A stretch of 64,000 bases of DNA, taken from Clostridia bacterium. Its GTDB lineage: Bacteria > Bacillota > Clostridia > RGIG6154. A model generated the notes under the pieces. The model was not told the origin of the DNA. It searched no databases and was given only the letters and a program-made list of their open reading frames with translations. This document shows, piece after piece, positions 8,519 to 64,000 of this stretch. Position 1 is the stretch's first letter; each line of letters begins with the position of its first letter. A program made the translations under genes and the position numbers. The stretch covers positions 9,192 through 73,191 of the forward strand of contig JAFQQW010000058.1 of assembly GCA_017410375.1 (NCBI GenBank). Reading direction: 5' to 3'.

Positions 8519-8521
8519 TGA

Positions 8522-9666: not shown

Positions 9667-9682
9667 GGATGTACTTTTTTAA

Positions 9683-11311: not shown

Positions 11312-11332
11312 TTGTGATACTCCTCACTTATT

Positions 11333-39591: not shown

Positions 39592-39733
39592 AAAAACATA
39601 CCTCTTTCTTAAGTTTTCTGCTCTCCCCGCCCGACATCTCTGTGGCGGTTTCAAACAGCCGGTAGGTTTTATGCACTACTCGTCCCTGTGGTGTCTCCTA
39701 TGGCAACGAAAATGCAATGTGCTGTATTAAAAT

Positions 39734-40468: not shown

Positions 40469-40473
40469 ATTGT

Positions 40474-42741: not shown

Positions 42742-42755
42742 TATATACTCCTTAC

Positions 42756-47320: not shown

Positions 47321-48619
47321 TTACCTCCTTTTCAATTTCCGCGTGGTTTTTTGATTAACATAATCTATGATGTAGGGCGAAGCCGGCACCATAAAAAGAA
47401 TACATGTAGGAATGATAAAATTTAACATAACGGGCTGTGCAACATACATAATAAAGAAGATAATATACAAAGCCGTATATTTGCAGTTTAAATTTAATTT
47501 TTCAAACCCCTTTTTGATAGTTTCAGCCATTTTGTAGTAAAAAACACCCATAGCCGCAGTGAACCAAAATCCATATCTTGCCATATCCGAGAACAACTGC
47601 GAATGTTCGTGCACAACATATGTACCGTTGCCCGCCCCCTGATAGTAAGAGCCAACCCCGAGACCATAGGTGTTGAAGAAAGTCTCCAAGTCCCACAGCC
47701 AACGGTCGCTTCGTGCCGCCATATCACCGGTCGCCTCACCGCCAATCAGCGAGCTGCCCATATCATAAACCTTCCAGGATATATAGTGATTTTCAATGTG
47801 TGTTGCCGCTTCCTGTAACCACGCACCAACAACACTTTTAAAAAACAGCAAGAAAGCAAGCGAAAAAATAGTCACCACAAATTTGGTTGCAGGCGTTCTG
47901 TTTTGCAAAATAACCAAAACAGGCGCAAGAAAAGCGCAAACAAAAACAGTACCGGTTGAGCAAATAAGTGCAAGACAAAAACAAATGATAACAATAATCC
48001 AAGCCGCCACTCTCACCCAGCATTTTTTTAAGCATTTGCCTTGTAACATACACAAAAGCATTGTACCGATCAGAATAGAGCAGTAAATATGATGCACATT
48101 ACCGATATTTTTGAAATAGTTTTCCGCTATCATGTCGGTTTGACTTGAAAATTCACGATAGGATGCCGGATTTTCAATAAGACCGAGCAATGTTGTAAAA
48201 AGCGTAAACGCAAATGCAAGAAAAACAACGCACCCCAAAGAACCGAGCGCTTGCTTTTTATCGGTATAATAATAGTAATAGTATACAAGAAATACATACC
48301 ACGGTCCTGCAATCATAATAAACATTTCTGCCGCGTTACCGATACCAAGCAAGGCAAAATATACATATATCCCGATAAAAAGGAATGCCAGCACACCACA
48401 TATTGTTCCGTTAAAAAACCAGTTTGGTCTTAAAAAGTAACTTGTGCAAAACCATCCGCCCATAACGGTTGCCATGATAAGCGTATACAAACCACCCAAA
48501 AGGGGCGCTTGTACAATAGGCACAATCATCAAAAAGATGGATACCATTGCAAAAAAGTAATTGGAAAACAGCCAGAATTTTTCACTGAAATCTGCTTTTC
48601 TTTCCAAATTGTACATCAT
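47321..48619 (-). CDS. wzy: oligosaccharide repeat-unit polymerase, Wzy-like
   Basis: Polytopic membrane protein with one large extracytoplasmic loop, in a wzx-wzy context. Confidence 0.5.
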   Translation of the reverse strand: MMYNLERKADFSEKFWLFSNYFFAMVSIFLMIVPIVQAPLLGGLYTLIMATVMGGWFCTSYFLRPNWFFNGTICGVLAFLFIGIYVYFALLGIGNAAEMFIMIAGPWYVFLVYYYYYYTDKKQALGSLGCVVFLAFAFTLFTTLLGLIENPASYREFSSQTDMIAENYFKNIGNVHHIYCSILIGTMLLCMLQGKCLKKCWVRVAAWIIVIICFCLALICSTGTVFVCAFLAPVLVILQNRTPATKFVVTIFSLAFLLFFKSVVGAWLQEAATHIENHYISWKVYDMGSSLIGGEATGDMAARSDRWLWDLETFFNTYGLGVGSYYQGAGNGTYVVHEHSQLFSDMARYGFWFTAAMGVFYYKMAETIKKGFEKLNLNCKYTALYIIFFIMYVAQPVMLNFIIPTCILFMVPASPYIIDYVNQKTTRKLKRR

Positions 48620-48628
48620 TTCACTTCC

Positions 48629-49741
48629 TCATTTACATCTATACTTAATTTTTCGGTATAACCACACTTTAAAGGGCGGCGACACCGTATATTTTTTCAA
48701 TTTCTTCAAAATATTTTCCGCACTTAATCCTTCAAAAAAGGCGTCTCTCTCTTTGTGCATTGCTATATTCTGATGTTGTTCCATGGCGGTATGTTCTATT
48801 TTTTTCACACGACAATCTTCTTTTGCCGCTTGCAGCAATGCCTCACCTTTCGAGGTGTGCACAATGGCTTTTCCTGTGCCTCTCTCATCCGCGAAAGTCG
48901 CATCATATTTGGCAATATCAAAGAAATCACCTATCGTTATATCCGATGCGTGCATTTTATCCTGCGCACTGCAGGTATAACAACTTTTACGCAAAAACAG
49001 ATTCTGCAGATACCCGCGCATATACAAATCGTCCTGATGATATTTGCAATATCTGACTTTTGCCGACTGAATGCGTACACTGTACGCCCGCCAGGAAATA
49101 CGCTTATCCCGAAACGCGATTTTTTCAGGTCTCCCTTTGGCAATTTTCCGACTGTAAAAATCAAAAACTTTCGGACTGCCTACACCGTGGCATAAAAAAT
49201 CCACAAGGTACACATTGTCACGCGCACCCAAAAACGCTTTAACTGCACCAATCTGGCAAGGTGTTCCGCAAATCAGAACTTTCTCGCCTGCATCCGCCTT
49301 TTCTTTCAGAAGCGGTAATGCATCGTAAAGATTGCTTTGTACATATTTGGAACCAAGCAGTTTTGCGAGCTCGTTTTGGTTATTTGCCGCCTGATGGGAA
49401 AGCATACCTTTCTCATCAAATGCCGCACCGAACACGGTGCCGCCCTGCCCGATGATCCACATCGCCAAAGCAGAAAACATCCCGCCCGAAGAAGATTTTT
49501 GCAATACTTCAGGGGATTTATGTACCGTTGCGTACACACTTTCCCGAATGTCCGTCTGTACCGTCTTTTGCAAGGCAACGCAGTTGCGCATACATTTACC
49601 GCATTGTGTACATCGCGTACCGACTATCTCCGGATATAAAAATCCCTCTGTATTTTCTCGCATGATTATCGCCTGTGCGGGACAACCTTCGGCACATACA
49701 CCGCAACCGACACATTCATTTTCGGGCAAACGGATATTCAT
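48629..49741 (-). CDS. coenzyme F420 hydrogenase/dehydrogenase beta-subunit-like Fe-S protein (polysaccharide pyruvylation-associated)
   Basis: N-terminal 2x[4Fe-4S] ferredoxin motifs CVGCGVCAEGCP / CTQCGKCMRNC; partner of the pyruvyl transferase. Confidence 0.7.
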   Translation of the reverse strand: MNIRLPENECVGCGVCAEGCPAQAIIMRENTEGFLYPEIVGTRCTQCGKCMRNCVALQKTVQTDIRESVYATVHKSPEVLQKSSSGGMFSALAMWIIGQGGTVFGAAFDEKGMLSHQAANNQNELAKLLGSKYVQSNLYDALPLLKEKADAGEKVLICGTPCQIGAVKAFLGARDNVYLVDFLCHGVGSPKVFDFYSRKIAKGRPEKIAFRDKRISWRAYSVRIQSAKVRYCKYHQDDLYMRGYLQNLFLRKSCYTCSAQDKMHASDITIGDFFDIAKYDATFADERGTGKAIVHTSKGEALLQAAKEDCRVKKIEHTAMEQHQNIAMHKERDAFFEGLSAENILKKLKKYTVSPPFKVWLYRKIKYRCK

Positions 49742-49752
49742 TGTACTCTCCT

Positions 49753-50922
49753 TTATAATAATTCCTTCAACGCCTTTGCGGCGGTATATGCATTTTCAAC
49801 ATATTCGGGCATAATTTCCTGCAAATGTGCACGAACTTCCTCTTTTTTGTCATCCAACGCACGGTATGCCTGTGTAAGTTCATCCTTGCCGTGCATATCT
49901 TTCATGGAAATGACATATCCTTGCTCGGTGCCAAACAAATCCCGTGCAATGCCGACAGATTTTATGCTGTACCCGATAACCAATGTAGGCACACACATCG
50001 CGTATGCCGAAATGGAAGAATGGGTTCTTGCACAAATTAACATTTCACATTTGGAAATGATATCCCGAAGCTGTGCATATTTATAATCAGTACCGATTAT
50101 TTTCACACGTCCGGTATGTACATATTGGTCAAACAGTGGTTTCATACAAGCATAGTCGCTGTTTCCGTCAAAATTTACATGTGGAATAAACAAAATATTT
50201 TTTTCGGTATCATTTAAAATGTATTCAATCAGATTCTGCACCGATTTAAGTACATCTGCATTTTTGCCGCCCTGCGTAACAATGGGACTGAAATTGATGC
50301 CCACCGTATTGGGTTCCACCTCAAATTTACTGTCTTCCTTCTGAATGGTAAAAGCGGGATCGGACACCCGTACCACCTTTGCATTTTTCAATTTTCCGGA
50401 CAACGCATTAAAGGTTTCTTCTTCGCGTGCGGTAATCAGTGCATAGCCGTCCAAATCAGCAATCATGGCATCATTTAAAAATGCCGCATCCACACTGCAC
50501 CCCCACAAGACACGTTTAAAACCGGCCTTGTCAATCAAACGGTTACTGTAATACAACCATGCAGGCGTTTCGCAACAATAGTTGTCCCCGCCAATGGACA
50601 TGAACACTGTATCCTTCGGTTGTTTTTGGATACTCTTTTTAAAATTCGGATATGTTTTTCTTGCCACAATTTCTTCATCTTTAAAGAATTTACGCCAAGC
50701 ACCGTAAATTTTACGCAAAAACTTGTTTTTTGTATAACTGTCGGGATAAATTTCTTTTATTGTTCCCTTTGGAAGAAAACGATCATCCGCCGCCTTTTCC
50801 AGACTGGAAAGCACAAATTCGTTATCCTCTTTGCCAATCATATTTACGCTGGACACCACAATGGCTTCACAACCATGGTTATTACATCCGCCATGTCCGT
50901 ACATATAATATCTTTTTTTCAC
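49753..50922 (-). CDS. polysaccharide pyruvyl transferase (WcaK/CsaB family)
   Basis: N-terminal YGHGGCNNHGCEAIV (GxxNxGDxAI-like) motif of PS_pyruv_trans. Confidence 0.75.
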   Translation of the reverse strand: MKKRYYMYGHGGCNNHGCEAIVVSSVNMIGKEDNEFVLSSLEKAADDRFLPKGTIKEIYPDSYTKNKFLRKIYGAWRKFFKDEEIVARKTYPNFKKSIQKQPKDTVFMSIGGDNYCCETPAWLYYSNRLIDKAGFKRVLWGCSVDAAFLNDAMIADLDGYALITAREEETFNALSGKLKNAKVVRVSDPAFTIQKEDSKFEVEPNTVGINFSPIVTQGGKNADVLKSVQNLIEYILNDTEKNILFIPHVNFDGNSDYACMKPLFDQYVHTGRVKIIGTDYKYAQLRDIISKCEMLICARTHSSISAYAMCVPTLVIGYSIKSVGIARDLFGTEQGYVISMKDMHGKDELTQAYRALDDKKEEVRAHLQEIMPEYVENAYTAAKALKELL

Positions 50923-52037
50923 AGCTTATTCACCTCATCAAAAATTGCTTGCATTTCCGCTTCCAGATCGGTTGCGTTGTGCTTGGCTTTGCACGCCGCA
51001 TACGCTTTGTCGAAATCGATTTCCCCGGCCATAGCGTTACGTAATGCATCGGCACAGCTTTTCGGGTCGTCTTTGCGATACGCAAATACATGCCCATACA
51101 TAAATTCTTTTAAATTGTCATAATCTGGCACAACAATCGGCTTTCTTGCCGCACACGCCTCATATATCAATCGCGTCTGATGCGCCTTAGTCGGCGAAAA
51201 CAGTACCGTATCACAAGCTGCATACAATTGTTCCACCTGTTGTGTAGGCGGAACAATTTCAATTTTGTCTGCAAGACCATGCTTTCGTATATACATAAGA
51301 CAAGTTTTGGCATAACTTTGTGCCTGTGCTTCTTCAAAGGTTTTGGAAGAAACAATTAACAATTTACAGTTTTCTGTTTCTTTCAATGCTTTTAATGCCG
51401 TCAATGTTCCCTTCAATCGATTGATACCACCCAGAAACAGTATCTTTTTGGGGTTGTCGGAATTTAAAAAGCCTTCCTGCTTGTCATACAAATCAAAATC
51501 CACTTTATCATATAAAACAGTTTTAAAAATATCTGACTTGTCGAAAAAGTGCATATCATATGCCGAAATGAACACCAACCCATCAAAATGTGCTGCCATT
51601 TGTTTACGGATATGTGATGCATACAGAGTGTCCGGCAAAGTTTCCCTTTGCAGACAAATGGCTTTCTTGCCATATTTCTTTGCAATCGCCCCTGTATAAA
51701 ATAAGGTAAGTGAATTGGCAATCACCAAATCACAATCACTATTTTTAATACAATTTTCTATGATTTTTTTCGTTTTGCACACATGGCGCATGGAACTCCA
51801 GAATGAGGGCGACAACAGATTGGTCACACCACCGTTATAGTAAGGATTTGACATAACCCACGGCACACGTTGCACCGAAAAACCATCCTTTTCCAAACGT
51901 TTGCATGTATCTTCAGGCTTGGTTGTGTTTAAAAAGGAAACGGAATCTCCACGATTTTTAAGTGCATTTGCCAACTGCATCATGCTGACTGAAGAACCGC
52001 CCCACACACCTGCGTGATTGATAAAAAGAATCTTCAT
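50919..52037 (-). CDS. glycosyltransferase family 4 (GT-B)
   Basis: N-terminal MKILFINHAGVWGG and a C-terminal E-x7-E-type region. Confidence 0.75.
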   Translation of the reverse strand: MKILFINHAGVWGGSSVSMMQLANALKNRGDSVSFLNTTKPEDTCKRLEKDGFSVQRVPWVMSNPYYNGGVTNLLSPSFWSSMRHVCKTKKIIENCIKNSDCDLVIANSLTLFYTGAIAKKYGKKAICLQRETLPDTLYASHIRKQMAAHFDGLVFISAYDMHFFDKSDIFKTVLYDKVDFDLYDKQEGFLNSDNPKKILFLGGINRLKGTLTALKALKETENCKLLIVSSKTFEEAQAQSYAKTCLMYIRKHGLADKIEIVPPTQQVEQLYAACDTVLFSPTKAHQTRLIYEACAARKPIVVPDYDNLKEFMYGHVFAYRKDDPKSCADALRNAMAGEIDFDKAYAACKAKHNATDLEAEMQAIFDEVNKL

Positions 52038-52951
52038 TATTTTTTGCCCCGTTTCAGTAATTTCCTTATTTTTTTCTTCCAGCGGAGCATAAGGGGTCGA
52101 CGGAATATTTGTGCAACCGCCTTTTCAATGCGCGCGTCTAATTCTACATTTTCAAAACGCACTTTTCCCTTATTTTCGTTAATTTCCGTATCAAAACGGG
52201 TATCTGCGCTGCTTACATGTACGCCCGACCCGTCGTTTCCGCCGTTGGAAACCAATGTTTCTTTCGGCAAAACAAAAAGCATATCATTTTTAAAGGCGTT
52301 ATATGTAAAACGAATTGCCCAGGAATCAATTCTGCCTTCCATTTGCGACATCAGCATCTCGGTTCTGTCGCAACCGGTTTTATTAAAAGCTTTAACTTGC
52401 TTTTTATCTTTTATAAATGTTTTATAGTCACGGATTTCCCAGTCGATTTTTTCCCAACGGTCTTTCCAGGTCGCCCAGGCATAACTGGAACCCCTGCCCA
52501 TCACAAAAACATCATGTTTATAATCAGCAGGGAAGGTTATGGGCAATGTGTATCCGCCCAACGCCCAGATTTTTTGATTGTCACGATAAAATTCCAAACC
52601 TCTGTTCATATAATCCAGAAAATCTTCCGAAACCACGTTATCATCTTCCACAACAATCACATTGCCGTGCTTGCCGATAACATTGTTTACACCCGAAATA
52701 ACCGAGTTTGCCAGCCCCTGGTTTTGGGGAGCTTCCACAACCTCTACTTCGCCAAACCATTCTTTGATCGCATCGGAACGGATATATTCCCGCACCTGCT
52801 CCACTTTTTCGGCAACCTTTTCATTTTTAGGACCATCCGAAAAAATATACAACTTGCTTTCCTTTGCTTCAGGACATTTTGAAAGAGAGGTCAGCAATCT
52901 TTTTGCGTGGTCCGCTCTGTTATAAACAAAAACAACAATTGGTGCTTTCAT
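52037..52951 (-). CDS. putative GT-A-fold glycosyltransferase
   Basis: VVEDD DxD-like motif after a Rossmann-like N-terminus; TAGGAGC RBS before the ATG at 52951; family unclear. Confidence 0.45.
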   Translation of the reverse strand: MKAPIVVFVYNRADHAKRLLTSLSKCPEAKESKLYIFSDGPKNEKVAEKVEQVREYIRSDAIKEWFGEVEVVEAPQNQGLANSVISGVNNVIGKHGNVIVVEDDNVVSEDFLDYMNRGLEFYRDNQKIWALGGYTLPITFPADYKHDVFVMGRGSSYAWATWKDRWEKIDWEIRDYKTFIKDKKQVKAFNKTGCDRTEMLMSQMEGRIDSWAIRFTYNAFKNDMLFVLPKETLVSNGGNDGSGVHVSSADTRFDTEINENKGKVRFENVELDARIEKAVAQIFRRPLMLRWKKKIRKLLKRGKK

Positions 52952-53074
52952 AATTTTGCTCCTATCTGTCGCCGAACAAACTATATGCTTTGGACGACAA
53001 TTTCTTAATCCGCATAAAGCGGGCAATATGTCACGCACCGTCTTCCGACACAGCGGCTGACATATTCACTTAAA

Positions 53075-53973
53075 TTACCAATAGCAAGCGCCTTCCACCT
53101 GCTGTGCTTTTTCCGGCGTTTCCGTTTTGGAAGGACGAACCCAATGTTCGTTGTACAATTTGGAAACAATGGGATGATTATCCCAACGGTTACCCTTGAT
53201 ACCAAATAAAATTTGTGTAGCGCCACCCATATGTATTGCGGTTTTACCTGCTTTTTTCAACATGCAAGCGAGAGAAAACCCATACGCACCGCAACCGAGA
53301 ATCGCAACATCAAAATCTATTTTCATTGCCTCGTCATACATATAGTTCAGTGCATCAAACCAAGTTTCGAAGGAAGTTTCAAAAAAAGCTGAAGACTGTA
53401 CCGCTTTTATTGTTTTCAATTCAAATTCGGGCAGTACATCCGGATTTTCAAACAACAGCTCTCTTTTTTCATACTGACTGCGAATGGTTTCCTCAAACGG
53501 ATGGATAACCAAAACTTTTTTGCCTTTCAATGCAGCTGACCAGGGTTCATTCCAGTAATAAGGCTCCAGTCCGCGGGGAACGCAAACTTTTGCCTGTGGT
53601 GAATACAATTGAAGCAAAAAATCTTCCATGGGCCAAGCATAAACACCATACAAATCCGCTTCGCGGGATAAATCACCCTGCATTTTGCCGAAACGGTATC
53701 CCAGATCGGCATCATTCGGGAAAAATCCTGCATTCCGACACAAACTCAACATACAGTCGTCGCTGATTTTTTCTCTTTTCCCCATGTCCATTTCCAAAGC
53801 CTGCACCAATGTGCATCTTTAATTACATGATTCGCCTGCTCGGCAGACATCAACGGTCGTCCTGCGTATTTCTTCTCTTTAGACAACGTAAAACATTTTA
53901 ATTTTTTACGGACTAATCGCCATAAACCGGCAACCCTACATTTATTATACAGTGCTTTCATCCTGTTCACCAT
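53075..53973 (-). pseudogene. polysaccharide-locus gene of unknown family split across two frames (53746-53973 and 53075-53809); possible frameshift at an A6 run, or two genes
   Basis: Two same-strand ORFs overlap by 64 nt in different frames; T6/A6 homopolymer at about 53766-53771; the C-terminal part has a GCGAYGFSLA nucleotide-binding-like motif. Confidence 0.3.
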
Positions 53974-53985
53974 ATCCTTTCCGTT

Positions 53986-54900
53986 TCAACGTTTCAACAA
54001 AGCAGACATTTTCCGTTTTAAAATCTGATACAAAAATCTGTATCTCGCTTTCCAGACAGACATAACCTTTTTGGGATCGCCTGCGTAATACCTGTATGCT
54101 ATATTTTTATGAAAGCCTTGAATATGCAAAAGCATCATCATAACCGGTTGCCCTGTTTTTGTGTCTGTACAGTATGCCTTTTTATCTTCAAAAGAAACAT
54201 CCTTATATATTCCTTTCATCGCAAATCGGGTATCACTTTTTTTGGCAATATGGCTATCGAACGAAATGTTATCCCGAATCTGCAACAAGTCATAACGGGT
54301 AACACCGCAGTCTTTTACAAACATTTCAATCATGTACATATCGGTAATGTTTCTGCTGCCACCGTTGGCGTTTTTTTCGTTGGCACGAACATCTTTCAAA
54401 TGCTGTAAACATTCCGCGTCGGTGTAATATCTGAAGGTGTTGTCCACAAGCTTTGTAAGCACATCCACATTCTTAAAAACGTTACATCCGGGACCATATT
54501 CCCCATGCAAAGTCACATCGGCATCGCCACAATATTTATCGTGATATTCTGTTATGTCTCCATATACCAAAACATCCGAATCCAGGCAACAAAATCTGCC
54601 CGTAATACCTGCCTGCAACACAAAATCACGCATATACATCCACCGCTGGAAACAAATTCGTTCCACGAATCCGTTCATACTGCTTAAATGCACATAAATT
54701 TTTTCGAACTCTTTTGCTGTTTTTTCGCAGGTAGTCATATCTACATGCTGAATGCCGAACTTTTCATAATGCTTGTTTTTTTCGTCACCGATTAAATAAA
54801 TATCCGAATTGGGGTTGGACTGTATAATCTGATTAAATGTATATTGTAAATAGAAAGAGTCGCCTTTATGAAAAAAGATTAACGGTATTCCTGCTTTCAT
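53986..54900 (-). CDS. putative glycosyltransferase with DxD motif (GT32-like / capsule-biosynthesis-like)
   Basis: CLDSDVLV DxD motif; location inside the GT cluster; family uncertain. Confidence 0.4.
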   Translation of the reverse strand: MKAGIPLIFFHKGDSFYLQYTFNQIIQSNPNSDIYLIGDEKNKHYEKFGIQHVDMTTCEKTAKEFEKIYVHLSSMNGFVERICFQRWMYMRDFVLQAGITGRFCCLDSDVLVYGDITEYHDKYCGDADVTLHGEYGPGCNVFKNVDVLTKLVDNTFRYYTDAECLQHLKDVRANEKNANGGSRNITDMYMIEMFVKDCGVTRYDLLQIRDNISFDSHIAKKSDTRFAMKGIYKDVSFEDKKAYCTDTKTGQPVMMMLLHIQGFHKNIAYRYYAGDPKKVMSVWKARYRFLYQILKRKMSALLKR

Positions 54901-56111
54901 TTTAAAATACCTCCCAAAAAGTCTACAATTCGCTTACCCTGCACCTTATAATTCTTTTCATCCAATGCATACCGCTTAGACGCTTCGCCTTTTTCGGCAA
55001 GCACTTGCGCATCCTGCGTCAGAACTGTTTCAATACAGTTCCGGATTGCTTCCGCCGAGTCATTTTCGATTGGATAAATGTAGTCAAAATATGCTTTCGG
55101 GATACCGCCGACTGTTGTAGATGCCACCGTAGTTCCCGAAGTCATGTATTCTAAAATTTTGGACGGGAATGCATAATTGGCGTGGTCTTCATCAGGCGAT
55201 TTTACACTAATCAAAAGGTGTGCCGCCTTTTGATGTTCCAACAAATCCTTTCGGTCAACCTTGCCGAAATAGTGAATGCGACTGTCTTTTGCTTCGCATT
55301 CTTTTATGTAGTCAATCAAATCTCCATAACCAAACAACCATAGATTATAGTCGCCCTCTACCTGCATAAATCCGTCTAAAAGCTTGTCAATATTAAAGCT
55401 TTTGGAAAGGGCACCGGCATACATAACAGTTTTTTTGTCATTCTTAGGTACATCGTCCGTAATATCGAAAATGCTTGCATCGGAAAATCCTTCCACCAAA
55501 ACCGCAGGTTTTTCTTCAATTTTCATTTTCTTTGCCATATGTTCGGTAAGCAGAATATATGAATCAAATCCCGTCTGCAGCTTTACCATTTTGTTGCTGT
55601 AATGGTCAGTCATCAAGGTTTTCAAGCCTTTTGTTTCGTGCATTTTATAAAGGTAAGCCGGCAAATCAGAAATCAGACCGCATGTCTTTGTACCGTATTT
55701 CTTGCCCAACTTCTGTGTTGGCGCGGAATAAGGCGGATACACGCTGTAATTCAAAATCACCTTATCCTTGACATCCTTGTTTTCTTTCAACCATTTTTTC
55801 AATGCTCTGCGTGTACCGATTGCAGCACACATCTGCTTTAAAAACATCAGATTAATGCAGGGAATCCAGGTAACTTCTTTACCGAAATTAAGCTTTTCTT
55901 TACGTTTACCCCAGGCAAACAAGTTGCCACCCGGATATACACTTACGGTAGGCAAAGACACAACCGTAACATCGGCACCTGCTTCTTCCAAGCCTTTAAC
56001 AAGCATATTTTCAAAATTAACCGGTGCGTTGGAAGGTTTTACCTTGCTTTTGACCGCAATATCATCTAATGTCTTGTCGTTAATTAACGAACCCAAGAAA
56101 AATATTTTCAT
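54897..56111 (-). CDS. glycosyltransferase family 4 (GT-B)
   Basis: FPSKILEYMTSG E-x7-E motif region. Confidence 0.75.
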   Translation of the reverse strand: MKIFFLGSLINDKTLDDIAVKSKVKPSNAPVNFENMLVKGLEEAGADVTVVSLPTVSVYPGGNLFAWGKRKEKLNFGKEVTWIPCINLMFLKQMCAAIGTRRALKKWLKENKDVKDKVILNYSVYPPYSAPTQKLGKKYGTKTCGLISDLPAYLYKMHETKGLKTLMTDHYSNKMVKLQTGFDSYILLTEHMAKKMKIEEKPAVLVEGFSDASIFDITDDVPKNDKKTVMYAGALSKSFNIDKLLDGFMQVEGDYNLWLFGYGDLIDYIKECEAKDSRIHYFGKVDRKDLLEHQKAAHLLISVKSPDEDHANYAFPSKILEYMTSGTTVASTTVGGIPKAYFDYIYPIENDSAEAIRNCIETVLTQDAQVLAEKGEASKRYALDEKNYKVQGKRIVDFLGGILK

Positions 56112-56983
56112 ACGTTCTCCTCTTCAAAAAACTGACCGAATTTTTCGTCATATTCAGGCGGATTAAAGGGCACAAGCCCACCACCCGAGTGGAATGTCAA
56201 TTCACTAAACAGAATTTTACCGTTATTTTCATACAAATCCACACGAACAAAACGAAACGGCTTTGCAAGCTTTTCTGCAATTTCCACAAGCTCCGCTTTC
56301 TTTTCGGTAAGCGGATATTCAATATTCGGATACCCGAATTTTACGGGGATTTTTTCAAACTTTTCACTTAAAACATTGGTATACCGTTTGCCGTCTTTAT
56401 TCACATTCTGACAAATCAGCTTCACTTTTCCGTTAAAGCAATACAGCTTGTATTCCGCCAAGCAATCGGAAAAATCAATGTATTTGTCGCACAAAATGCG
56501 CGGCTTGATGTTTTTATAATTCTTTTCTCTGTCTTTGTAATAGAAATTGGTTTTCAGCCACTTATCAAACTTTTGCTTGGCATCCGCCTTATCAAGCTTT
56601 TCCTTATCGGTAACGATAATGTTAAAGCCCGAGGCATGGGTTGCCTTTAATGCAAAGCTTTTAGGCAATTTATCAAAATCAATTTCATCAAAAGAATTGT
56701 AAACGCCCAAAACTTCATTCAAAACCTCTTCGCCGACACATTCTTTCACATAGTTATGTACTTCGTACTTGTCGGTATATTTATCATATCCGTACTTTTC
56801 ATCCTTTAATTTTTCCGCAATGATATGCTGATTAAAGGTTTTTGGATTTTTAATGTCCATCCGCTTACCGAACACAATAAAGTACAAAAGCTTTGAATAA
56901 CTTTCATCGCTCATCAGCTTGGGAAACCGCTGACTGAACTTTATGGTAAGCACTTTAAGTACCATTTTAATTTTCCACAGCAT
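56108..56983 (-). CDS. TupA-like ATP-grasp fold amidoligase (teichuronopeptide-type)
   Basis: About 290 aa; KATHASG...FRFVRVDLY motifs of the ATPgrasp_TupA family. Confidence 0.6.
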   Translation of the reverse strand: MLWKIKMVLKVLTIKFSQRFPKLMSDESYSKLLYFIVFGKRMDIKNPKTFNQHIIAEKLKDEKYGYDKYTDKYEVHNYVKECVGEEVLNEVLGVYNSFDEIDFDKLPKSFALKATHASGFNIIVTDKEKLDKADAKQKFDKWLKTNFYYKDREKNYKNIKPRILCDKYIDFSDCLAEYKLYCFNGKVKLICQNVNKDGKRYTNVLSEKFEKIPVKFGYPNIEYPLTEKKAELVEIAEKLAKPFRFVRVDLYENNGKILFSELTFHSGGGLVPFNPPEYDEKFGQFFEEENV

Positions 56984-56988
56984 ATGTA

Positions 56989-58119
56989 TTAAACCTCGTT
57001 AAAGCAATCCACATATTGCTTGATAATCTCATCAATTTTGAGCTTGGAATCAATAAATGCCTTTGCATTGTTGCAAATTTCGTCATATTCTGCTTGTTCC
57101 ATATCGCAAAAGGCTTCAATCGCCTGCTCAAATTTTTCAGGGGCAGAAAGAGGCAACGCACAACCGCCGTTTGCCTGATTGATTCCGTTCCAGGGTGTGG
57201 TATCGCTGATGATAATGGGACGCTTGTGAATCATACCCTCCACAATGGAGTGTCCGTAATTTTCACCGATGGTAGGCATGTAGTAGGCATGGTACTTTGA
57301 TACCGTTTTGCCCACATCCTCATGGTCTACCGAACCGCAATAGTTCAGCTTCACATTTTCGGGCAGCTGAACTGCAAAGCACTTGTCATAGTATTCTCTG
57401 TTTTCGATGGGCCCGTAAATATCATAGGTTACATTGCCCTTGATATTTTTAAGACGTTCCACACCGTAAAGCAAATTTTTGGTATCCTGAATACGCGCAA
57501 TATAACAAAGTTTTAAATCGCCTTTTTCCTTTGTAATGGGCTTAATCTGGCTGTTATCCGCATAAGAAAAATTGTTGATATTGTAAATATCTTTGGCAGA
57601 AATGCCCATATATTTTACCATATCGTTAAGCTCTTCGTTGCCTGTTGCCTGATATTTTACACCTTTTAAGTACCCAAGCCATTTCAAAGCTTTGGTGTAC
57701 ACCGACTTTTTCAGATAGCCCTGCTTAAAGCGGTTTTCGCAGATTTCACCCCGAGGCGCAATCACAACACCCACATTTTTATGCTTTTTCTTGTATTTCA
57801 AAACGGGAATCACATGATTGTGGCTGAAAAAGCTGTTCTGGTAAATCACATCAGGCTGAACTTCCTCAATAATGGGATAAATATCTTTTCCGGAGGTTTT
57901 GCCGTATGGGCAATAAAATACCTTCCCGAAATCAAAAGTATTCCATCCGTTTTCAATGCCCGGAAGCGGTTTGGAATCCCCTACCTCAAAATTCTGAGAA
58001 ATGATATAAACTTCAAAATCATTTTTGATTGCCTGCACCACATTCATAATGCTCACCGGAGGTCCGCCACCGTTCTTCTGGGGCGGAAACAGCGATGCCA
58101 TAATCAGTAATTTTCTCAT
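56989..58119 (-). CDS. glycosyltransferase family 4 (GT-B)
   Basis: GT-B two-Rossmann layout with a C-terminal EGMIHKRPII-type donor-binding region. Confidence 0.75.
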   Translation of the reverse strand: MRKLLIMASLFPPQKNGGGPPVSIMNVVQAIKNDFEVYIISQNFEVGDSKPLPGIENGWNTFDFGKVFYCPYGKTSGKDIYPIIEEVQPDVIYQNSFFSHNHVIPVLKYKKKHKNVGVVIAPRGEICENRFKQGYLKKSVYTKALKWLGYLKGVKYQATGNEELNDMVKYMGISAKDIYNINNFSYADNSQIKPITKEKGDLKLCYIARIQDTKNLLYGVERLKNIKGNVTYDIYGPIENREYYDKCFAVQLPENVKLNYCGSVDHEDVGKTVSKYHAYYMPTIGENYGHSIVEGMIHKRPIIISDTTPWNGINQANGGCALPLSAPEKFEQAIEAFCDMEQAEYDEICNNAKAFIDSKLKIDEIIKQYVDCFNEV

Positions 58120-58120
58120 T

Positions 58121-59278
58121 TTACTTTCCCTCTTTTACATCTTTAAACAGTTGTTTAAACTGCTCTGCTACTCTTTCTTTTGAATATATTTCTTCTGTCG
58201 CTTTTCTTGCATTTTTGCCCATCTCAAGGCGTTTTTCCTTGTTTTCATACAAATCCAGCACACAGGATGCAATGTCCTTTGCGGTTAAGCTTTCGGGACA
58301 AACCCCTGCATTGTTGTTTATCACGGTATTGTAAAGGTCATTGTCTTTGTTACAAACCGCAAGTATCGGCATACCGCAAGCCATCATGTTGAACGTTTTG
58401 CTGGGCATAAAAAGTTCCGACATTTTATCTTCCTGGGAAACCAAGCCCACATCCCCCGACGCCATAGACATCTGAAAAACATCTTCAGGCTGGTGCGGTA
58501 ACAGTTTTACATTTTCAGCACCATTATCTATTGCCGCCTGCACAAAATCGCAACCGGGACCTTTGCCGATAAACAAAAACAGAATATCTTTTTTATCTTC
58601 CAACGCATTAGCCGATTCCAAAAGAAGCGGAATGTTGTGTCCTAAGCCCAGCTTCCCCGAATACAGCACAACGAATTTTCCCTCTAATCCCTGCTCTTTG
58701 ATGAAGCGGTTTTCTTCTTTTGGGATAGGCTTCATAAAATCAGGGTCGCAAGGATACGGAATCACTGCAATATCCTGCTTTTTCTTTAGTGGCTTGTTGA
58801 TGCTTTTGGCCATTACTTCACCTAATGTCACAATTTTATCAATTTTCGGGAAAGTGCGATTGTTTAAAAAATGCCACCCTTTACAAATCAAATGCACAAC
58901 GGGATTGCCTGTGCTTTTTTCCACCACATGCGGATAAATATCCCAGTTCATAAAAACAAATTTAGATTTGGTCTTTTTCTTACACCACACACCAAGCAAA
59001 CTGTTAATGGGCGGATTGGAAGTAGCATACACCAAATCAAATTGCATATTTTTATTCTGCTTCATAAATTTACGCACATCTTTGCGGTACTTTATCCAGC
59101 AAATAAAACGACTTTTTAACGAGCGAGGGTCATGGGGTGCTGTTTTATGAATTGTAATATTCGGCTGTTCTTTCGGTTCGCTGCCGGTTAAAAGATGCAC
59201 TTCGTCGCCCTCAAAAATTTTAGATAGTTGTTCTACCTCATCAGAACCTAGGTTCTGATTCAACACAAGAACTCTCAT
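58121..59278 (-). CDS. glycosyltransferase family 4 (GT-B)
   Basis: GT4-like C-terminal domain (FMPSKTFNMMACGMPIL). Confidence 0.75.
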   Translation of the reverse strand: MRVLVLNQNLGSDEVEQLSKIFEGDEVHLLTGSEPKEQPNITIHKTAPHDPRSLKSRFICWIKYRKDVRKFMKQNKNMQFDLVYATSNPPINSLLGVWCKKKTKSKFVFMNWDIYPHVVEKSTGNPVVHLICKGWHFLNNRTFPKIDKIVTLGEVMAKSINKPLKKKQDIAVIPYPCDPDFMKPIPKEENRFIKEQGLEGKFVVLYSGKLGLGHNIPLLLESANALEDKKDILFLFIGKGPGCDFVQAAIDNGAENVKLLPHQPEDVFQMSMASGDVGLVSQEDKMSELFMPSKTFNMMACGMPILAVCNKDNDLYNTVINNNAGVCPESLTAKDIASCVLDLYENKEKRLEMGKNARKATEEIYSKERVAEQFKQLFKDVKEGK

Positions 59279-59299
59279 AATTTATCCCACTTTTCTTTT

Positions 59300-60571
59300 T
59301 TATACTTTATCCTCGTTAATTGCCGTCTGATATTTTCCGTTTTTTCCGAGTGCTATATCTTCAACTTGTTCCAGAACAAATTCACCTGCACCAAAGCAAT
59401 CTCTTAAACGATCTAAAAGCTGTTCCCGGTCTGATTCCTCAATTCTGCCAACATATTTTAAAATATAAACATAATTTTTCTTTTGTACCATCTGATACTT
59501 TACGATGCCGGTAAACGGTTCTGTAACCGCCGCCATCATCACATTGCTTACAGCTCTGCCATCTGTTGCAGTTAACTGTCCTGCAACACGCCCGTGCAGT
59601 TGTTCCAATGTTGTAATGGCTCCGCGTTCCTCCAAAGAAACACCCAAGTCGCCCGTGTCGTACCGAATCAACGGCATTGCGCGATTATATAAATCCGTAA
59701 GAACAATTCGTCCGATTTCGCCCGACTCTACAGGTTCATCCGAATCAAGCTTCAGAATTTCAAAATAAATACTTGCCGTATTCAAATATAGCTTCTCTTC
59801 ATACGCCTTTGTAATGCCAAACAAACCGTTCTCTTCGTTGTCATAGCGATTAAAAACAGGACATTCAAAGGCCTGCTCCAGATTCCTTTTAAGCTGTATG
59901 GACAGCATATCCGAATCACATACAATCAATTTAACTTTAAATGCTTTACAATCTATCTTTTCACGTTGTATAAACAGCAGAAACTCTTTCATCGCAGACG
60001 CATAGCCAAACAAAACGCATTTTTTGTGTTTTTTCAGATACAACGCAAGCTCTTTTTTCTTTGCATCATCAAAAGTGGCGATGTTTACATTATAAACATT
60101 CTGCATAAAAGACTTTAGTTTAGACTGCTTATAATTGCTCACCCAGTTCCGGATAAATATGTATTTTGTGCCTAGTTTCCAGCCTATCCGGTTATGACAA
60201 TATACTAAATCACAAACTGTTCGGTTTCGTTTTTCAGCGTTCTGCACCACTTTAAAGGGTGTGCCGGTTGAACCACTGGTATACACCGTGTGTAAGTTTT
60301 GTCCTTCAAATTCATCCGAAAGAAACTCTGTTTCTGCTTTTTCACGGAATTTTAATTTTGTCATAACAGGAAATTCGGACAACTCCGGTGATTTTATATT
60401 CTTATAATAGGGAACATGTGCTATTGTATACTGTAATATTGCTTTTAGTCTGTCCTGTCTTACTAACCCCTGATGTATTGCAATATCTTTATAGCATTTT
60501 CGCTTTTTCCCTTTTCCTAATACAAAATCAGACACCCAGAAACCTGCGTTTCTGAACCATGCACCGAACAT
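59300..60571 (-). CDS. phenylacetate-CoA ligase / F390 synthetase family adenylate-forming enzyme (CapK-like)
   Basis: YTSGSTGTPFKV AMP-binding motif; length and layout of PaaK/CapK. Confidence 0.75.
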   Translation of the reverse strand: MFGAWFRNAGFWVSDFVLGKGKKRKCYKDIAIHQGLVRQDRLKAILQYTIAHVPYYKNIKSPELSEFPVMTKLKFREKAETEFLSDEFEGQNLHTVYTSGSTGTPFKVVQNAEKRNRTVCDLVYCHNRIGWKLGTKYIFIRNWVSNYKQSKLKSFMQNVYNVNIATFDDAKKKELALYLKKHKKCVLFGYASAMKEFLLFIQREKIDCKAFKVKLIVCDSDMLSIQLKRNLEQAFECPVFNRYDNEENGLFGITKAYEEKLYLNTASIYFEILKLDSDEPVESGEIGRIVLTDLYNRAMPLIRYDTGDLGVSLEERGAITTLEQLHGRVAGQLTATDGRAVSNVMMAAVTEPFTGIVKYQMVQKKNYVYILKYVGRIEESDREQLLDRLRDCFGAGEFVLEQVEDIALGKNGKYQTAINEDKV

Positions 60572-60572
60572 A

Positions 60573-61535
60573 TTATAACCTCCGAATCATCACTTCGTTA
60601 TATTTCATCATATAGATGCCTTCATCATAGGCACCGATATTTTTCTTGTTTTGGATGCCGTGGATGTTGTTCTGAATGAGCGTCATGTGGTCGCATCCGC
60701 TTTCATAAGCGTGGGGATAACCGCCGCCGAAACGGGGATTGACCTCTGAAATGTAATACGCACCGTCCACATCAAAAACGTCAATATCAATCTGTCCGCT
60801 GTAGCCTGCTTTTTTCACGAAATCCTCAATGAGTGCAAACAGCTTTTCATCCTTGAAGGATACCGCCTTATCGGTCTCCCCTGCACGCATGAGTAACTTT
60901 TTCTTGGTGAAAATGGACACAATCTCGCCCGACAGCATATCAATATACACATCCGCGCCGATTTCCTGTCCGTCCATAAATTCCTGAATCATCAGTCCCT
61001 CGTGATGTGCAAAGAGATTCTCTACCGTCTCCTTGTCATACACCTTGGAAATGGTTATACTGGCAGAACCGCAAATGGGCTTTACAAACACGGGATACTT
61101 TGCTTTTCCCGCTTCCACTTCCTTAAAGAACTCTTCTTTGTCAATATAGCTTTTGGCACAGTTATAGCCGTTATCCCGAAGCCATACATACATATCCCAT
61201 TTGTTTAAAGACATTTCGCAAAGCTCGTAAGAAGAACCTACCACCGTAACACCCAATTCTTTAAACTTGTCCTTATGCTGAGCAAGCAAAGAAAGCTCGG
61301 GGTCAATAAGGGTTAAAACCGCGTCAATCTCTTCTTTTTTGCAGATATCAAAAATAATGTCTATGTAGCCATCTTCTGTCATACGGGGCACCTGATAGAA
61401 CTTGTCCGCCTCATGCACCGCAGGCGCTAAATTGGTCATATCGGTCGCAACAACTTTGCCGTTGTTGCCTACCGTCCGTTTAAAATACTGCACCACTTTA
61501 TCCCGGGTGCCTGCACTTAAAATCAAAATATTCAT
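60573..61535 (-). CDS. ATP-grasp domain protein (amino-acid/carboxylate ligase, CPSase-like)
   Basis: ATP-grasp B/C-domain pattern (YPVFVKP...GSAS...EVNPRFGGG). Confidence 0.75.
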   Translation of the reverse strand: MNILILSAGTRDKVVQYFKRTVGNNGKVVATDMTNLAPAVHEADKFYQVPRMTEDGYIDIIFDICKKEEIDAVLTLIDPELSLLAQHKDKFKELGVTVVGSSYELCEMSLNKWDMYVWLRDNGYNCAKSYIDKEEFFKEVEAGKAKYPVFVKPICGSASITISKVYDKETVENLFAHHEGLMIQEFMDGQEIGADVYIDMLSGEIVSIFTKKKLLMRAGETDKAVSFKDEKLFALIEDFVKKAGYSGQIDIDVFDVDGAYYISEVNPRFGGGYPHAYESGCDHMTLIQNNIHGIQNKKNIGAYDEGIYMMKYNEVMIRRL

Positions 61536-61538: not shown

Positions 61539-62198
61539 TTACACCTTTTCCTTTTCCAGCTCAGCTTTTCGGATTTGTGCAAAATTGCCTTCGGTGGCAT
61601 TGGTGTTTTCCGAAATGTCACTGCGCTTTAACACCTTCATTGCGGTCATAAAGATAATTTTGATGTCCATCCACATGCTGATGTTTTGCACATATTCCAC
61701 GTCCAGCTTAAAACGATCCTCCCAGTTCACGCTGTTTCTGCCGTTCACCTGCGCCCATCCGGTAAGACCGGGACGCACATCGTGCCGATGGCGTTCGGTT
61801 TCGTTGTACCAGGGCAGGTATTCCACCAACAAAGGTCTCGGACCTACAATGGAGATATCGCCTTTTAAGATGTTAATTAAAGAGGGCAACTCATCGCATG
61901 AAGTCGAACGTAAAAATTTGCCATACTTATTCAGGCGCACCTCGTCGGGCAGGAGATTGCCGTCTTTATCTTTGGCATTGGACATGGTGCGGAATTTTAA
62001 AAGCTTAAAAATCTTTTCCTCACCGGTCTTTTTATCAATTTTACCGGGTCGCATTTGGGTAAAGAACGGATTTCCGCGCATAGCAATGGCACCGACAATC
62101 GTAAAAATCAACAGAAACGGCGACAAACACACCAGTGCGATAAAAGAAAGCAAAATATCCAAAAATCGTTTAAAAAACTTTGCGTACAAACTGAACAC
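61539..62198 (-). CDS. undecaprenyl-phosphate sugar phosphotransferase, small PglC/WecP-like initiating transferase
   Basis: Single N-terminal TM then the Bac_transf core (DELPSLINILKGDISIVGPRP). Confidence 0.85.
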   Translation of the reverse strand: MFSLYAKFFKRFLDILLSFIALVCLSPFLLIFTIVGAIAMRGNPFFTQMRPGKIDKKTGEEKIFKLLKFRTMSNAKDKDGNLLPDEVRLNKYGKFLRSTSCDELPSLINILKGDISIVGPRPLLVEYLPWYNETERHRHDVRPGLTGWAQVNGRNSVNWEDRFKLDVEYVQNISMWMDIKIIFMTAMKVLKRSDISENTNATEGNFAQIRKAELEKEKV

Positions 62199-62203: not shown

Positions 62204-63451
62204 TTATTCAAAACAGCTTCTGATGATTTCAATCACAACATCCTGCTCCTGCTCTGTCATACGGATATCGCTGGGCAAGCACAGACCACGATGGAAAATA
62301 TCCTCGCCCACTTCAGAATAGTCGCCCGATGCAATGTAGGCATTGGTACGGCATCTGCCGTCGCCCGTCGCGGTTACATAGGGATTCATGCGGAAGATGG
62401 GTTGCATATGCATGGGCTTCCAGATGGGTCTGCCCTCTGCATTGTATTTGGCAAGTGCCTCTAAAATTTCTGTGGGACAGCTTTTTCCGCTTTCGGGAAT
62501 GAAAAGTGCCTCGCTGTCACTTCTGACCTGCTTGCACATAGCATCTTCGTCAATCAAAAGGCAGGACAGCCAGAAGTTCGGTTCGCATTCTTCGGGATTA
62601 TAGGGATTCATCGAAACGGGCAAATCCTTTAATCCCTCTTTGTAGCGCATATAAATTGCCTTTTTCTTGGCAATATGTTCTTCCAAGTACGGAAGCTGAC
62701 CGCGTACAACCCCCGCAATCACGTTGGACATGCGGTAATTGTAGCCGATTTCCTCATGCTGATACCAGGGTGCATTCTCACGGCTCTGGGTAGACCATTT
62801 GCGCGCACGGTTTGCCGCTTCCAAATCGTCGGTTAAGAGCATACCGCCCGAAGAGCCGGTTATAATTTTGTTGCCGTTAAAGCTGATGGCATTATATGTA
62901 CCGAATGTACCTGTCTGCACACCCTTATAAGAAGCACCAAAGGATTCTGCCGCGTCCTCAATTAAAATTGCACCGTGCTTTTCACAGACTGCCTTGATTT
63001 CATCCATTTTGGCAGGTGTGCCATATAGGTTTACGCTCACAACCACCTTTACATCCGGATACATCTCAAAGGCTTTTTCCAACGCCACCGGGTCCATGTT
63101 CCAGGTATCCCGTTCCGAATCAATAAATATCGGGATGCCCCCCTCATACACAACCGGGTTTACGGTTGCACTGAAAGTCATGTCCGAGCAGAACACATAA
63201 TCGCCTTTTTTAATGCCTGCAAGCTTCATGCAAAGGTGCAGTGCCGCAGTTCCGGCAGACAAAGCCACTGCATACTTGCAACCGATTTTTTCTGCCGCAA
63301 GGCGTTCCACCTCATTGATATTCTTGCCAACCGTAGACATCCAGTTGGTTTCGTACGCCTCTGTCACATATTGAATCTCTTCGCCGTGCATGCATGGCGA
63401 AGCAAGCCAGATTCGATTTTCGAACGGCTTGAACGCTTTTGTATGTGCCAT
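62204..63451 (-). CDS. DegT/DnrJ/EryC1/StrS-family PLP-dependent sugar aminotransferase
   Basis: Fold-type I aminotransferase with SxNGNK(I/L) lysine region (ISFNGNKIIT); first gene of the operon, GGGGG RBS. Confidence 0.9.
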   Translation of the reverse strand: MAHTKAFKPFENRIWLASPCMHGEEIQYVTEAYETNWMSTVGKNINEVERLAAEKIGCKYAVALSAGTAALHLCMKLAGIKKGDYVFCSDMTFSATVNPVVYEGGIPIFIDSERDTWNMDPVALEKAFEMYPDVKVVVSVNLYGTPAKMDEIKAVCEKHGAILIEDAAESFGASYKGVQTGTFGTYNAISFNGNKIITGSSGGMLLTDDLEAANRARKWSTQSRENAPWYQHEEIGYNYRMSNVIAGVVRGQLPYLEEHIAKKKAIYMRYKEGLKDLPVSMNPYNPEECEPNFWLSCLLIDEDAMCKQVRSDSEALFIPESGKSCPTEILEALAKYNAEGRPIWKPMHMQPIFRMNPYVTATGDGRCRTNAYIASGDYSEVGEDIFHRGLCLPSDIRMTEQEQDVVIEIIRSCFE

Positions 63452-63552: not shown

Positions 63553-63596
63553 CGTATTTTCTATCCCTCTTTTCGGTCAAAAAGCCTCTTTTTTTG

Positions 63597-64000
63597 ACAT
63601 CTGAAGCGTTCCGCCCATTCATACAATGTAGGGCAGGGGCTTGCTCCTGCCGAAAAAGGCGAAATGATACGCAGGTACTTCCCTACAAGACGTTAATTTG
63701 ACATCTGAAGCGTTCTGCCCATTCATACAATGTAGGGCAGGGGCTTGCTCCTGCCGAAAAAGGCGGAACGAGCAAGCCCGTTCCCTACAAGATTGTAATA
63801 AAACAACTTTGTGCTTGCAAATTTTGTTAAATTGCAGCAAAATTCAATTGCAGAGAAGCAGCTGTGCGAAATGATACGTAGGTGCTTCCCTGCAAGACGT
63901 TAATTTGACATCTGAAGCGTTCTGCCCATTCATACAATGTAGGGCAGGGGCTTGCTCCTGCCGAAAAAGGCGGAACGAGCAAGCCCGTTCTCTACAAGAT
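63597..64000. repeat. tandem long-palindrome repeats of about 100 bp (three or more copies, one with an internal deletion of about 120 bp), running off the window edge
   Basis: Unit GACATCTGAAGCGTTCTGCCCATTCATACAATGTAGGGCAGGGGCTTGCTC...GAGCAAGCCCGTTCCCTACAAG at 63597, 63700 and 63907. Confidence 0.7.

Follow-up and report, generated by a model that had tools for sequence, protein, structure and literature searches.

The 64-kb window analysed here, a 64,000-nucleotide stretch of contig JAFQQW010000058.1 from an uncultured Clostridia bacterium, carries one long abutting series of genes on its minus strand (38407-63451 in the open reading frame (ORF) map). Neighbouring genes abut or share 1-21 nt, which argues that the series is co-transcribed as an operon. 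The operon includes three carboxylate-activating ligases: a Pyl/PglB2-like ATP-grasp ligase, a CapK-like adenylate-forming enzyme and a TupA-like ATP-grasp amidoligase (coordinates in Table 1). A first-pass annotation of this DNA had placed these minus-strand ORFs correctly, with two family 4 glycosyltransferase (GT4) genes among them and genes for a uridine diphosphate (UDP)-glucose 6-dehydrogenase (Ugd) and an epimerase in the same operon. It read the trio as one set of enzymes that amidates uronic-acid carboxylates or amino-sugar amines with amino acids or a short peptide. Our analysis agrees with it on the enzyme classes and departs from it on the unit. The trio looks like separate decoration modules, one for amino-sugar acylation and one for uronic acid amidation.

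The ATP-grasp ligase matches PylC-like_N (1.4e-40) and ATP-grasp_3 (2.3e-14) in profile scans, which bears out its first-pass classification. It also reaches 523 bits against the NCBIfam equivalog NF009406, 'carbamoyl phosphate synthase-like protein' (cut-off 271). The closest solved structure is 2pn1, an uncharacterised structural-genomics entry with 41% identity (2.9e-84 by sequence). The AlphaFold2 model (predicted local distance difference test (pLDDT) 90.5) has a template modelling (TM) score of 0.87 to 2pn1, and identity to all other ATP-grasp structures is 14-20%. The ATP-grasp fold comes with a conserved nucleotide- and metal-binding core, and in an alignment of 33 homologues 88 columns do not vary, those of the E264-x-N266-P-R268 block among them. 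For a gene of glycan loci, the family shows unusually high conservation, and it is also very large (8000 or more homologues were scored, the best 120 listed being ~75-100% identical). Its members are common in Bacillaceae too.

Genomic context ties this enzyme to amino-sugar genes. Its neighbourhood was surveyed in 80 genome loci, with ORFs mapped onto the window proteins, and 67 of these had enough upstream sequence (individual loci carry L labels below). A phosphoglycosyltransferase lies upstream of the ATP-grasp gene in 61 of the 67 and an aminotransferase in 57, with both partners present in 55. A 4,6-dehydratase-type short-chain dehydrogenase/reductase (SDR) precedes the aminotransferase in many related loci, and a GT4 gene comes after the ATP-grasp gene in nearly all. 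The same two partners stand at the head of the window operon, a connection that the first-pass annotation did not make. The window aminotransferase scores 320 bits against the LegC family and 207 bits against PseC, both under the equivalog cut-offs. An exhaustive search of ATP-grasp family representatives revealed natural fusions to Bac_transf (P0494, the architecture of PglB2) and to a DegT aminotransferase (P0466). Further fusions involve PglD-like N-acetyltransferases (P0379, P0460), an ornithine/diaminopimelate (Orn/DAP) decarboxylase fold (P0397), Gcn5-related N-acetyltransferases (GNATs) and a GT4; the set also contains P0438, P0505 and P0454. Several of these fusions occur on many contigs, and they are useful Rosetta-stone evidence for the whole family.

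Some relatives have extra genes between those for the phosphoglycosyltransferase and the ATP-grasp, and these specify small-acid or amino-acid enzymes: GNATs and/or pyridoxal phosphate (PLP) beta-family (PALP) enzymes (25 ORFs), an Orn/DAP decarboxylase fold (7 loci in a first count, 11 by wider BLAST labelling) and class I/II aminotransferases (3 loci in the first count, 2 of them with a D-2-hydroxyacid dehydrogenase, and 6 by the wider labelling). Branches of the ATP-grasp tree do not sort neatly with the accessory genes, and the tree therefore gives no handle on acid specificity. As weak evidence, this pattern would be in keeping with a first step that is conserved and tailoring that varies after it.

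A related cassette is found on Escherichia coli plasmids, where a GNAT-PALP-ATP-grasp triad follows a DegT aminotransferase among deoxythymidine diphosphate (dTDP)-sugar genes. The example on NZ_LR890610.1 (L090, 17689-32666) is O-antigen-like and flanked by insertion sequence elements. It encodes an epimerase, dTDP-glucose 4,6-dehydratase, RfbA, a flippase, the DegT aminotransferase, the GNAT, a PLP enzyme resembling ACC deaminase/D-Cys desulfhydrase, an ATP-grasp 32% identical to that of the window, and a glycosyltransferase. Among 5426 genomes the cassette was seen only on plasmids of four, with no chromosomal copy; IncR typing was seen for NZ_LR890610.1 only. A search for an E. coli serogroup of known structure with this cassette thus led to plasmids alone.

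Two characterised systems resemble the head of the operon. The Pat/Pyl pathway of Bacillus cereus ATCC 14579 makes UDP-Yelosamine (Hwang et al. 2014, PMID 25368324, cited in PMC11626204). According to PMC11626204, Pyl is an ATP-grasp enzyme that ligates 2-oxoglutarate to the 4-amino group of a UDP-4-amino-6-deoxy-N-acetylhexosamine (HexNAc). The 4,6-dehydratase, Bc3750, is encoded in a separate operon (PMC4514872). In both organisms a sugar 4-aminotransferase, an ATP-grasp and a small phosphoglycosyltransferase stand together in a Firmicute polysaccharide cluster; the likeness is one of gene arrangement and proposed activity, not of sequence alignment. Within the BC5263-BC5279 cluster of B. 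cereus, phosphoglycosyltransferase Q814Z7 comes after the ATP-grasp gene. The gene orders differ, with Pat-Pyl-phosphoglycosyltransferase in B. cereus and aminotransferase-phosphoglycosyltransferase-ATP-grasp in the window. The window also has both a CapK-like and a TupA-like partner, whereas neither is known to have been reported for the B. cereus system.

The second system is Neisseria meningitidis PglB2, an ATP-grasp/phosphoglycosyltransferase fusion that makes the 4-glyceramido sugar GATDH, an activity deduced from genetic data and mass spectrometry of the glycan rather than assayed with the isolated protein (PMC11130364, PMC6959607). Here too, an ATP-grasp is coupled to the initiating phosphoglycosyltransferase in place of the usual N-acetyltransferase, and the sugar is a 4-N-acyl trideoxyhexose. 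The likeness is again by architecture rather than by sequence alignment, the Bac_transf fusion in the window enzyme's own family being built in the same way. Some relatives in that family also have an aminotransferase and a 2-hydroxyacid dehydrogenase that could make glycerate. Unlike PglB2, which serves protein O-glycosylation, the window genes are separate and belong to a polysaccharide operon. A search seeded with a Bacillaceae homologue of the ATP-grasp and three cluster look-ups returned no named B. cereus or Neisseria match. Because of its tie to the aminotransferase and phosphoglycosyltransferase at the operon head, together with these precedents, the ATP-grasp is likely the N-acylating ligase of the initiating 4-amino sugar.

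The CapK-like enzyme was rightly assigned to the PaaK/CapK family of adenylate-forming enzymes. Its match to PF00501 (AMP-binding) is 22.9 bits, under the gathering score of 29.9, and a profile built from 47 homologues matches PaaK (4r1l) at 6.6e-22. The AlphaFold model (pLDDT 91.6) aligns over its full length with PaaK1 (2y27; Foldseek 1e-25, TM 0.71). The motif YTSGSTGTPFKV named in the first-pass annotation is found at residue 97. The P-loop TSGSTGTP (98-105), the hinge R303-Y-D-x-G-D308, G327-R328 and K413 are kept in the 47 homologues, in which T98, S99, G100, S101, G103, P105, E247, G249, R303, Y304, D305, G307, D308, G327 and K413 are the same in every sequence; T102, T104 and R328 are shared by 90% or more of them.

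Compared with the PaaK-family AMP ligases (PaaK1/2, BT_0428, NatL2/AjiA1/ClxA), the window enzyme has the same fold and a complete set of adenylation motifs but only 16-18% identity to the solved members. The closest solved relatives are phenylacetate-CoA (coenzyme A) ligases and 2-hydroxyisobutyryl-CoA ligase. Orthology to phenylacetate-CoA ligase was ruled out by TIGR02155 (PaaK), which gives 40.3 bits against a cut-off of 646.3. From sequence and model, we regard the CapK-like group as a distinct subfamily of PaaK-fold adenylating ligases. PDB matches include NatL2, AjiA1 and ClxA, which we take to form ester or amide bonds without CoA; this would make direct amide formation by CapK plausible. 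The family diverges fast, the nearest relatives being 56% identical. NCBI names the window protein 'hypothetical protein', a precomputed match to PF27533 (CapK_C) is weak, and a homologue on a Deinococcus actinosclerus plasmid is annotated 'capsule biosynthesis protein CapK'. A literature search gave nothing useful on a role of CapK or F390 synthetase in glycan loci.

For the glycan-locus members of the CapK-like group, the link to amino-sugar modules rests on gene context. All 14 CapK contexts examined lie within an amino-sugar or phosphoglycosyltransferase module. CapK directly adjoins a Pyl-like ATP-grasp in 11 of them (the window, L024, L059, L068, L073, L083, L084, L085, L086, L091 and L093). 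In one more (L087), within a dehydratase-aminotransferase-phosphoglycosyltransferase module, the ATP-grasp is a different one and stands two genes away from CapK. FemAB-like transferases (Acetyltransf_6/FemAB_like) stand beside CapK in four loci (L085, L087, L091, L093); the FemAB family forms peptide bonds in an aminoacyl-tRNA-dependent manner. Viewed from the other side, no more than 4 of the 67 ATP-grasp loci have a CapK gene; the ATP-grasp can therefore do without CapK. This context suggests that CapK probably extends or caps the N-acyl group begun by the ATP-grasp, forming a second amide on the side chain.

The two remaining contexts (L088, L092) contain no ATP-grasp. The gene order there is dehydratase, DegT aminotransferase, CapK, a ~390-aa protein, a second CapK and a thiamine-diphosphate enzyme, so that two CapK paralogues come directly after the dehydratase and sugar aminotransferase. 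This arrangement suggests that CapK-like enzymes are able to act on amino sugars alone, with the thiamine-diphosphate enzyme possibly making the acid. In such ATP-grasp-free loci, CapK may N-acylate the amino sugar itself.

In Texcoconibacillus texcoconensis (L068, ~8001-11500), the CapK-like gene is flanked by two Pyl-like ATP-grasp genes, 61% and 66% identical to that of the window, and a PALP gene lies upstream. This locus is a candidate for a longer side chain.

The TupA-like enzyme matches PF14305 (ATPgrasp_TupA) at 7.2e-46, far over the cut-off of 25 bits, as the first-pass annotation had proposed. The match is full-length (residues 56-286 of 291, profile positions 5-240 of 241), and the motifs KATHASG and FRFVRVDLY were located at residues 113 and 243. 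The alignment has 19 invariant residues. RefSeq names the homologues 'ATP-grasp fold amidoligase family protein', and neither a single-sequence nor a profile search found a solved relative. The gene is coupled to polymerising glycosyltransferases. It sits between two GT4 genes and its stop shares 4 nt with the start of the downstream one. The GT4-TupA-GT4 set recurs, with TupA at 50-60% identity, both in loci that lack CapK (L003-L006, L018) and in loci that have it (L024, L083, L084). The upstream GT4 of the set travels with TupA and the next GT4 at 45-51% identity.

A source of uronic acid is encoded in the same operon. The Ugd-like protein is under the 757-bit cut-off of NF011631 and over that of an NDP-sugar dehydrogenase subfamily (332 bits vs 190). 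The SDR of the 4-epimerase type has no [ST]DE acid/base pair by motif analysis, and no NCBIfam equivalog cut-off was reached. Its best PDB match, 5u4q, is followed by 6zl6, WbgU and WbpP at ~1e-41 to 1e-34. We take these best matches to be sugar-nucleotide 4-epimerases, one of them the B. cereus UDP-glucuronic acid (GlcA) 4-epimerase; the search table names 6zl6 only as 'Epimerase domain-containing protein'. The SDR is probably a UDP-GlcA 4-epimerase. It was also considered as the missing 4,6-dehydratase, which motif analysis and PDB matches ruled out.

The precedent for the TupA family comes from Campylobacter jejuni. Cj1438C, the C-terminal, TupA-like domain of Cj1438, links serinol phosphate or ethanolamine phosphate to GlcA as an amide at the C6 carboxylate, and this amidation must precede the next glycosyl transfer (PMC11800379). 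The window protein belongs to the same Pfam family and is likewise set among polymerising glycosyltransferases, a likeness by family and not by pairwise alignment. Cj1438C is fused to a GT2, whereas the window protein stands alone. The amines of C. jejuni come from dedicated neighbours (Cj1436/Cj1437), followed by a phosphatase, whereas the window operon has no Cj1436-, Cj1437- or Cj1435-like genes, so the window enzyme probably uses a different amine. With no amine-supply genes in the operon, that amine must come from general metabolism. Formation of a uronamide by the TupA-like enzyme is favoured by analogy, because of the PF14305 match, the Cj1438C precedent, the GT4 neighbours, and Ugd and the epimerase in the same operon.

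The three ligases are linked and separable at once. In the diverged loci L083, L084 and L024 the genes for ATP-grasp, CapK and TupA lie side by side, and CapK there shares 47-55% identity with its window homologue; the co-occurrence of the three is therefore not due to chance. Yet most loci have the ATP-grasp without the other two, and TupA is found where CapK is missing (L003-L006, L018). Conversely, at least nine loci (L059, L068, L073, L085-L088, L091, L092), and L093 as well, have CapK but no TupA. Since each gene occurs without the others, the three ligases are best viewed as combinable modules, not as one unit. Amides on amines and/or uronic carboxylates, as first proposed, fit the evidence; the single unit does not. 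Nothing in the locus shows the peptide or polyglutamate addition that was also envisaged.

We consider it fairly probable that the operon makes a Wzx/Wzy-type heteropolysaccharide with two separate kinds of amide decoration. The scheme starts from the observed folds, motifs and conserved gene order, and every substrate and the order of reactions are inferred. A 4,6-dehydratase encoded elsewhere would provide the keto precursor. In the first module, at the operon head, the aminotransferase would turn UDP-4-keto-6-deoxy-HexNAc into a 4-amino sugar. The ATP-grasp would then couple a small carboxylic acid to the 4-amino group by way of an acyl phosphate; the acid would be an oxo, hydroxy or amino acid, and the proposed acceptor is UDP-4-amino-4,6-dideoxy-HexNAc. 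With this acylated sugar as its first residue, the glycan would be started on undecaprenyl phosphate by the small phosphoglycosyltransferase. CapK would be an optional add-on of this module: working through an acyl-adenylate, it would most likely introduce a second amide into the new side chain, perhaps by acylating a free amine there or by activating a free carboxylate. In the second module, the TupA-like enzyme would activate the C6 carboxylate of GlcA or galacturonic acid (GalA) on the growing lipid-linked glycan and join an amine or amino acid to it in amide linkage ahead of the next sugar transfer, with GlcA/GalA supplied by Ugd and the 4-epimerase.

Several observations weigh against this scheme. 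The larger window ORFs that were scanned (most of those of at least 150 aa, some ORFs not being scanned) include no 4,6-dehydratase, so the substrate of the aminotransferase is assumed. As the dehydratase is unlinked in B. cereus and adjacent in many related loci, its absence here does not exclude the pathway. The query with a Bacillaceae homologue returned no B. cereus protein among the top matches, so Pyl may belong to a different sub-branch from the window ATP-grasp. The operon has no C. jejuni HS:2-style amine supply (no PLP decarboxylase/aminotransferase pair and no HAD phosphatase), and the window has neither a carrier protein nor an acyltransferase. The contiguity of the trio in the three diverged loci could mean that TupA also acts on the amino-sugar side chain. 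Finally, the source is an uncultured metagenome-assembled genome (MAG).

This contiguity is also the starting point for a single assembly line, in which the ATP-grasp would add a dicarboxylic or amino acid to the 4-amine and CapK and TupA would each extend it, giving a short peptide-like substituent on the initiating sugar and leaving the uronic acid free. The FemAB-like transferases found with ATP-grasp and CapK in four loci, the ATP-grasp, CapK and second ATP-grasp of L068, and the frequency of GNAT and PALP genes in the module would fit this idea. We nevertheless judge it unlikely. TupA keeps the same GT4 partners where CapK is missing, CapK occurs in at least nine loci without TupA, the only biochemically characterised TupA-like enzyme works on the GlcA carboxylate of a glycan (PMC11800379), and the operon has its own Ugd and epimerase. 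CapK might also be a mere substrate supplier whose acyl-AMP or acyl-CoA is passed by another enzyme to an O- or N-acylation, with no amide made by CapK itself. The CoA ligases among its closest solved relatives and the GNAT or hexapeptide acyltransferases of several related loci are compatible with such a role. It is, however, quite improbable, considering the lack of an acyltransferase or carrier protein beside CapK in the window operon, the PaaK equivalog scores far under their cut-offs, and the paired CapK paralogues that directly follow a sugar aminotransferase in the loci without an ATP-grasp.

The remaining alternative is a chance placement of housekeeping genes in the operon, namely those for D-Ala-D-Ala ligase or carbamoyl-phosphate synthase and for phenylacetate-CoA ligase. 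Homologues do bear the names 'carbamoyl-phosphate synthase large subunit' and 'phenylacetate-CoA ligase'. The first-pass annotation had itself named D-Ala-D-Ala ligase as an assignment that would overturn its claim, and the profiles speak against this: TIGR01205 (Ddl) gives 39.5 bits where 245.65 are needed, and no Van ligase model exceeds 32 bits, their cut-offs being 495 or more. Together with the low PaaK score, the strict synteny with the sugar aminotransferase and phosphoglycosyltransferase, the fusion proteins, and the translational coupling of the genes within the operon, these scores effectively refute the idea, which keeps next to no probability.

Beyond the two-module scheme, we tentatively entertain a broader possibility, that ATP-grasp and CapK are central to an uncharacterised kind of sugar tailoring that is widespread in gut Firmicutes. 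The ATP-grasp would first install a common acid on the 4-amino sugar. Before the glycan is initiated, interchangeable partners would then extend this nucleotide sugar by a short side chain, either non-ribosomal and peptide-like or elaborated in some other way. The partners would include CapK, FemAB-like proteins, GNATs, PALP enzymes, decarboxylases, pairs of transaminase and dehydrogenase, and in some cases TupA. CapK itself would be an amide synthetase of a new type, independent of CoA and with a sugar nucleotide as its substrate.

N-acyl groups on 4-amino-6-deoxy sugars and uronic amides alter the charge and antigenicity of bacterial surface glycans, and few of the enzymes responsible are known. 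The 'carbamoyl phosphate synthase-like' ATP-grasp of NF009406 and 2pn1 is mis-named. Gut Clostridia and Bacillaceae carry it in abundance, nearly always linked to a sugar aminotransferase and an initiating transferase and together with tailoring genes that vary. The outcome is a testable functional label for thousands of unannotated genes, along with a conserved partnership between this ATP-grasp and an uncharacterised CapK-like ligase. The result for the window is a reasoned annotation, not a surprise, as the ligases are of known kinds and two of the three have characterised counterparts. The earlier remark that such modification is poorly characterised in Gram-positive bacteria was overstated for those two, given Pyl in the Gram-positive B. 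cereus, PglB2 and Cj1438C; the CapK-like ligase is the least understood step.

Table 1. Genes and other features of the minus-strand operon, in order of transcription (positions in the window).
Feature	Coordinates	Strand	Basis or remark
Candidate operon promoter	63552-63524	-	TTGACA, 17-nt spacer, TG-extended TATAAT, 12/12 matches; consensus match only
DegT/LegC/PseC-type sugar 4-aminotransferase, first gene	62204-63451	-	PF01041 3.5e-82
Small monotopic phosphoglycosyltransferase (PglC-like), initiating enzyme	61539-62198	-	PF02397 Bac_transf 2.1e-57
Pyl/PglB2-like ATP-grasp ligase, 320 aa	60573-61535	-	PylC-like_N, ATP-grasp_3, NF009406
CapK-like PaaK-fold adenylate-forming ligase, 423 aa	59300-60571	-	Homologue profile, ANL motifs, AlphaFold model
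GT4 glycosyltransferase, C-terminal half WcaI-like	58121-59278	-	Profile scan
GT4 glycosyltransferase	56989-58119	-	Profile scan
TupA-like ATP-grasp amidoligase, 291 aa	56108-56983	-	PF14305 157.1 bits
GT4 glycosyltransferase, weakly TuaC-like (teichuronic acid)	54897-56111	-	Start shares 4 nt with TupA stop
Protein without assigned family, 304 aa	53986-54900	-	
GT-D-like fragment	53075-53809	-	
GT2-like	52037-53038	-	
GT4	50919-52037	-	
Polysaccharide pyruvyl transferase	49753-50922	-	
FrhB/FdhB-like 4Fe-4S flavoprotein	48629-49741	-	
432-aa membrane protein, Wzy candidate	47321-48619	-	
Flippase-like protein	45759-47318	-	
Bifunctional fucokinase/GDP-fucose pyrophosphorylase, Bacteroides-type	42756-45725	-	
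SDR, 4-epimerase type	41674-42780	-	SSSSVYG...YAATK signature; PDB 5u4q 4.5e-109
GalK-like GHMP kinase	40474-41655	-	
Sugar-1-phosphate nucleotidyltransferase	39734-40477	-	
UDP-glucose 6-dehydrogenase-like (Ugd)	38407-39654	-	NF011631 609 bits

The candidate promoter lies ~73 nt upstream of the aminotransferase start codon. Further upstream are direct repeats (63659-63793 and 63866-64000) that are 97% identical over 135 nt and reach the window edge, with a weaker third copy at 63555-63689. A GC-rich terminator-like hairpin, GGAACGGGCTTGCTCGTTCC, followed by a T run, is common to two repeat copies (63784-63765 and 63990-63973). An Rfam scan of the repeated region (63555-64000) gave no match.

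The same locus is also present on a metagenome contig from the European Nucleotide Archive (L001). The GT-D-like ORF of the window has no normal N-terminus, and a 75-aa ORF (53746-53973) overlaps its 5' end in another frame; an A-rich run, GGGGAAAAGAGAAAAAATC, lies near the overlap. Identical split gene calls are made on the independent contig L001, and the gene is therefore possibly a frameshifted or phase-variable glycosyltransferase. In the operon tail, the GalK-like kinase is paired with the nucleotidyltransferase. This pair and the fucokinase/GDP-fucose pyrophosphorylase look like salvage routes that supply the glycan in this Clostridia MAG. The pyruvyl transferase gene is paired with the gene of the FrhB/FdhB-like flavoprotein, and this pairing is recurrent.

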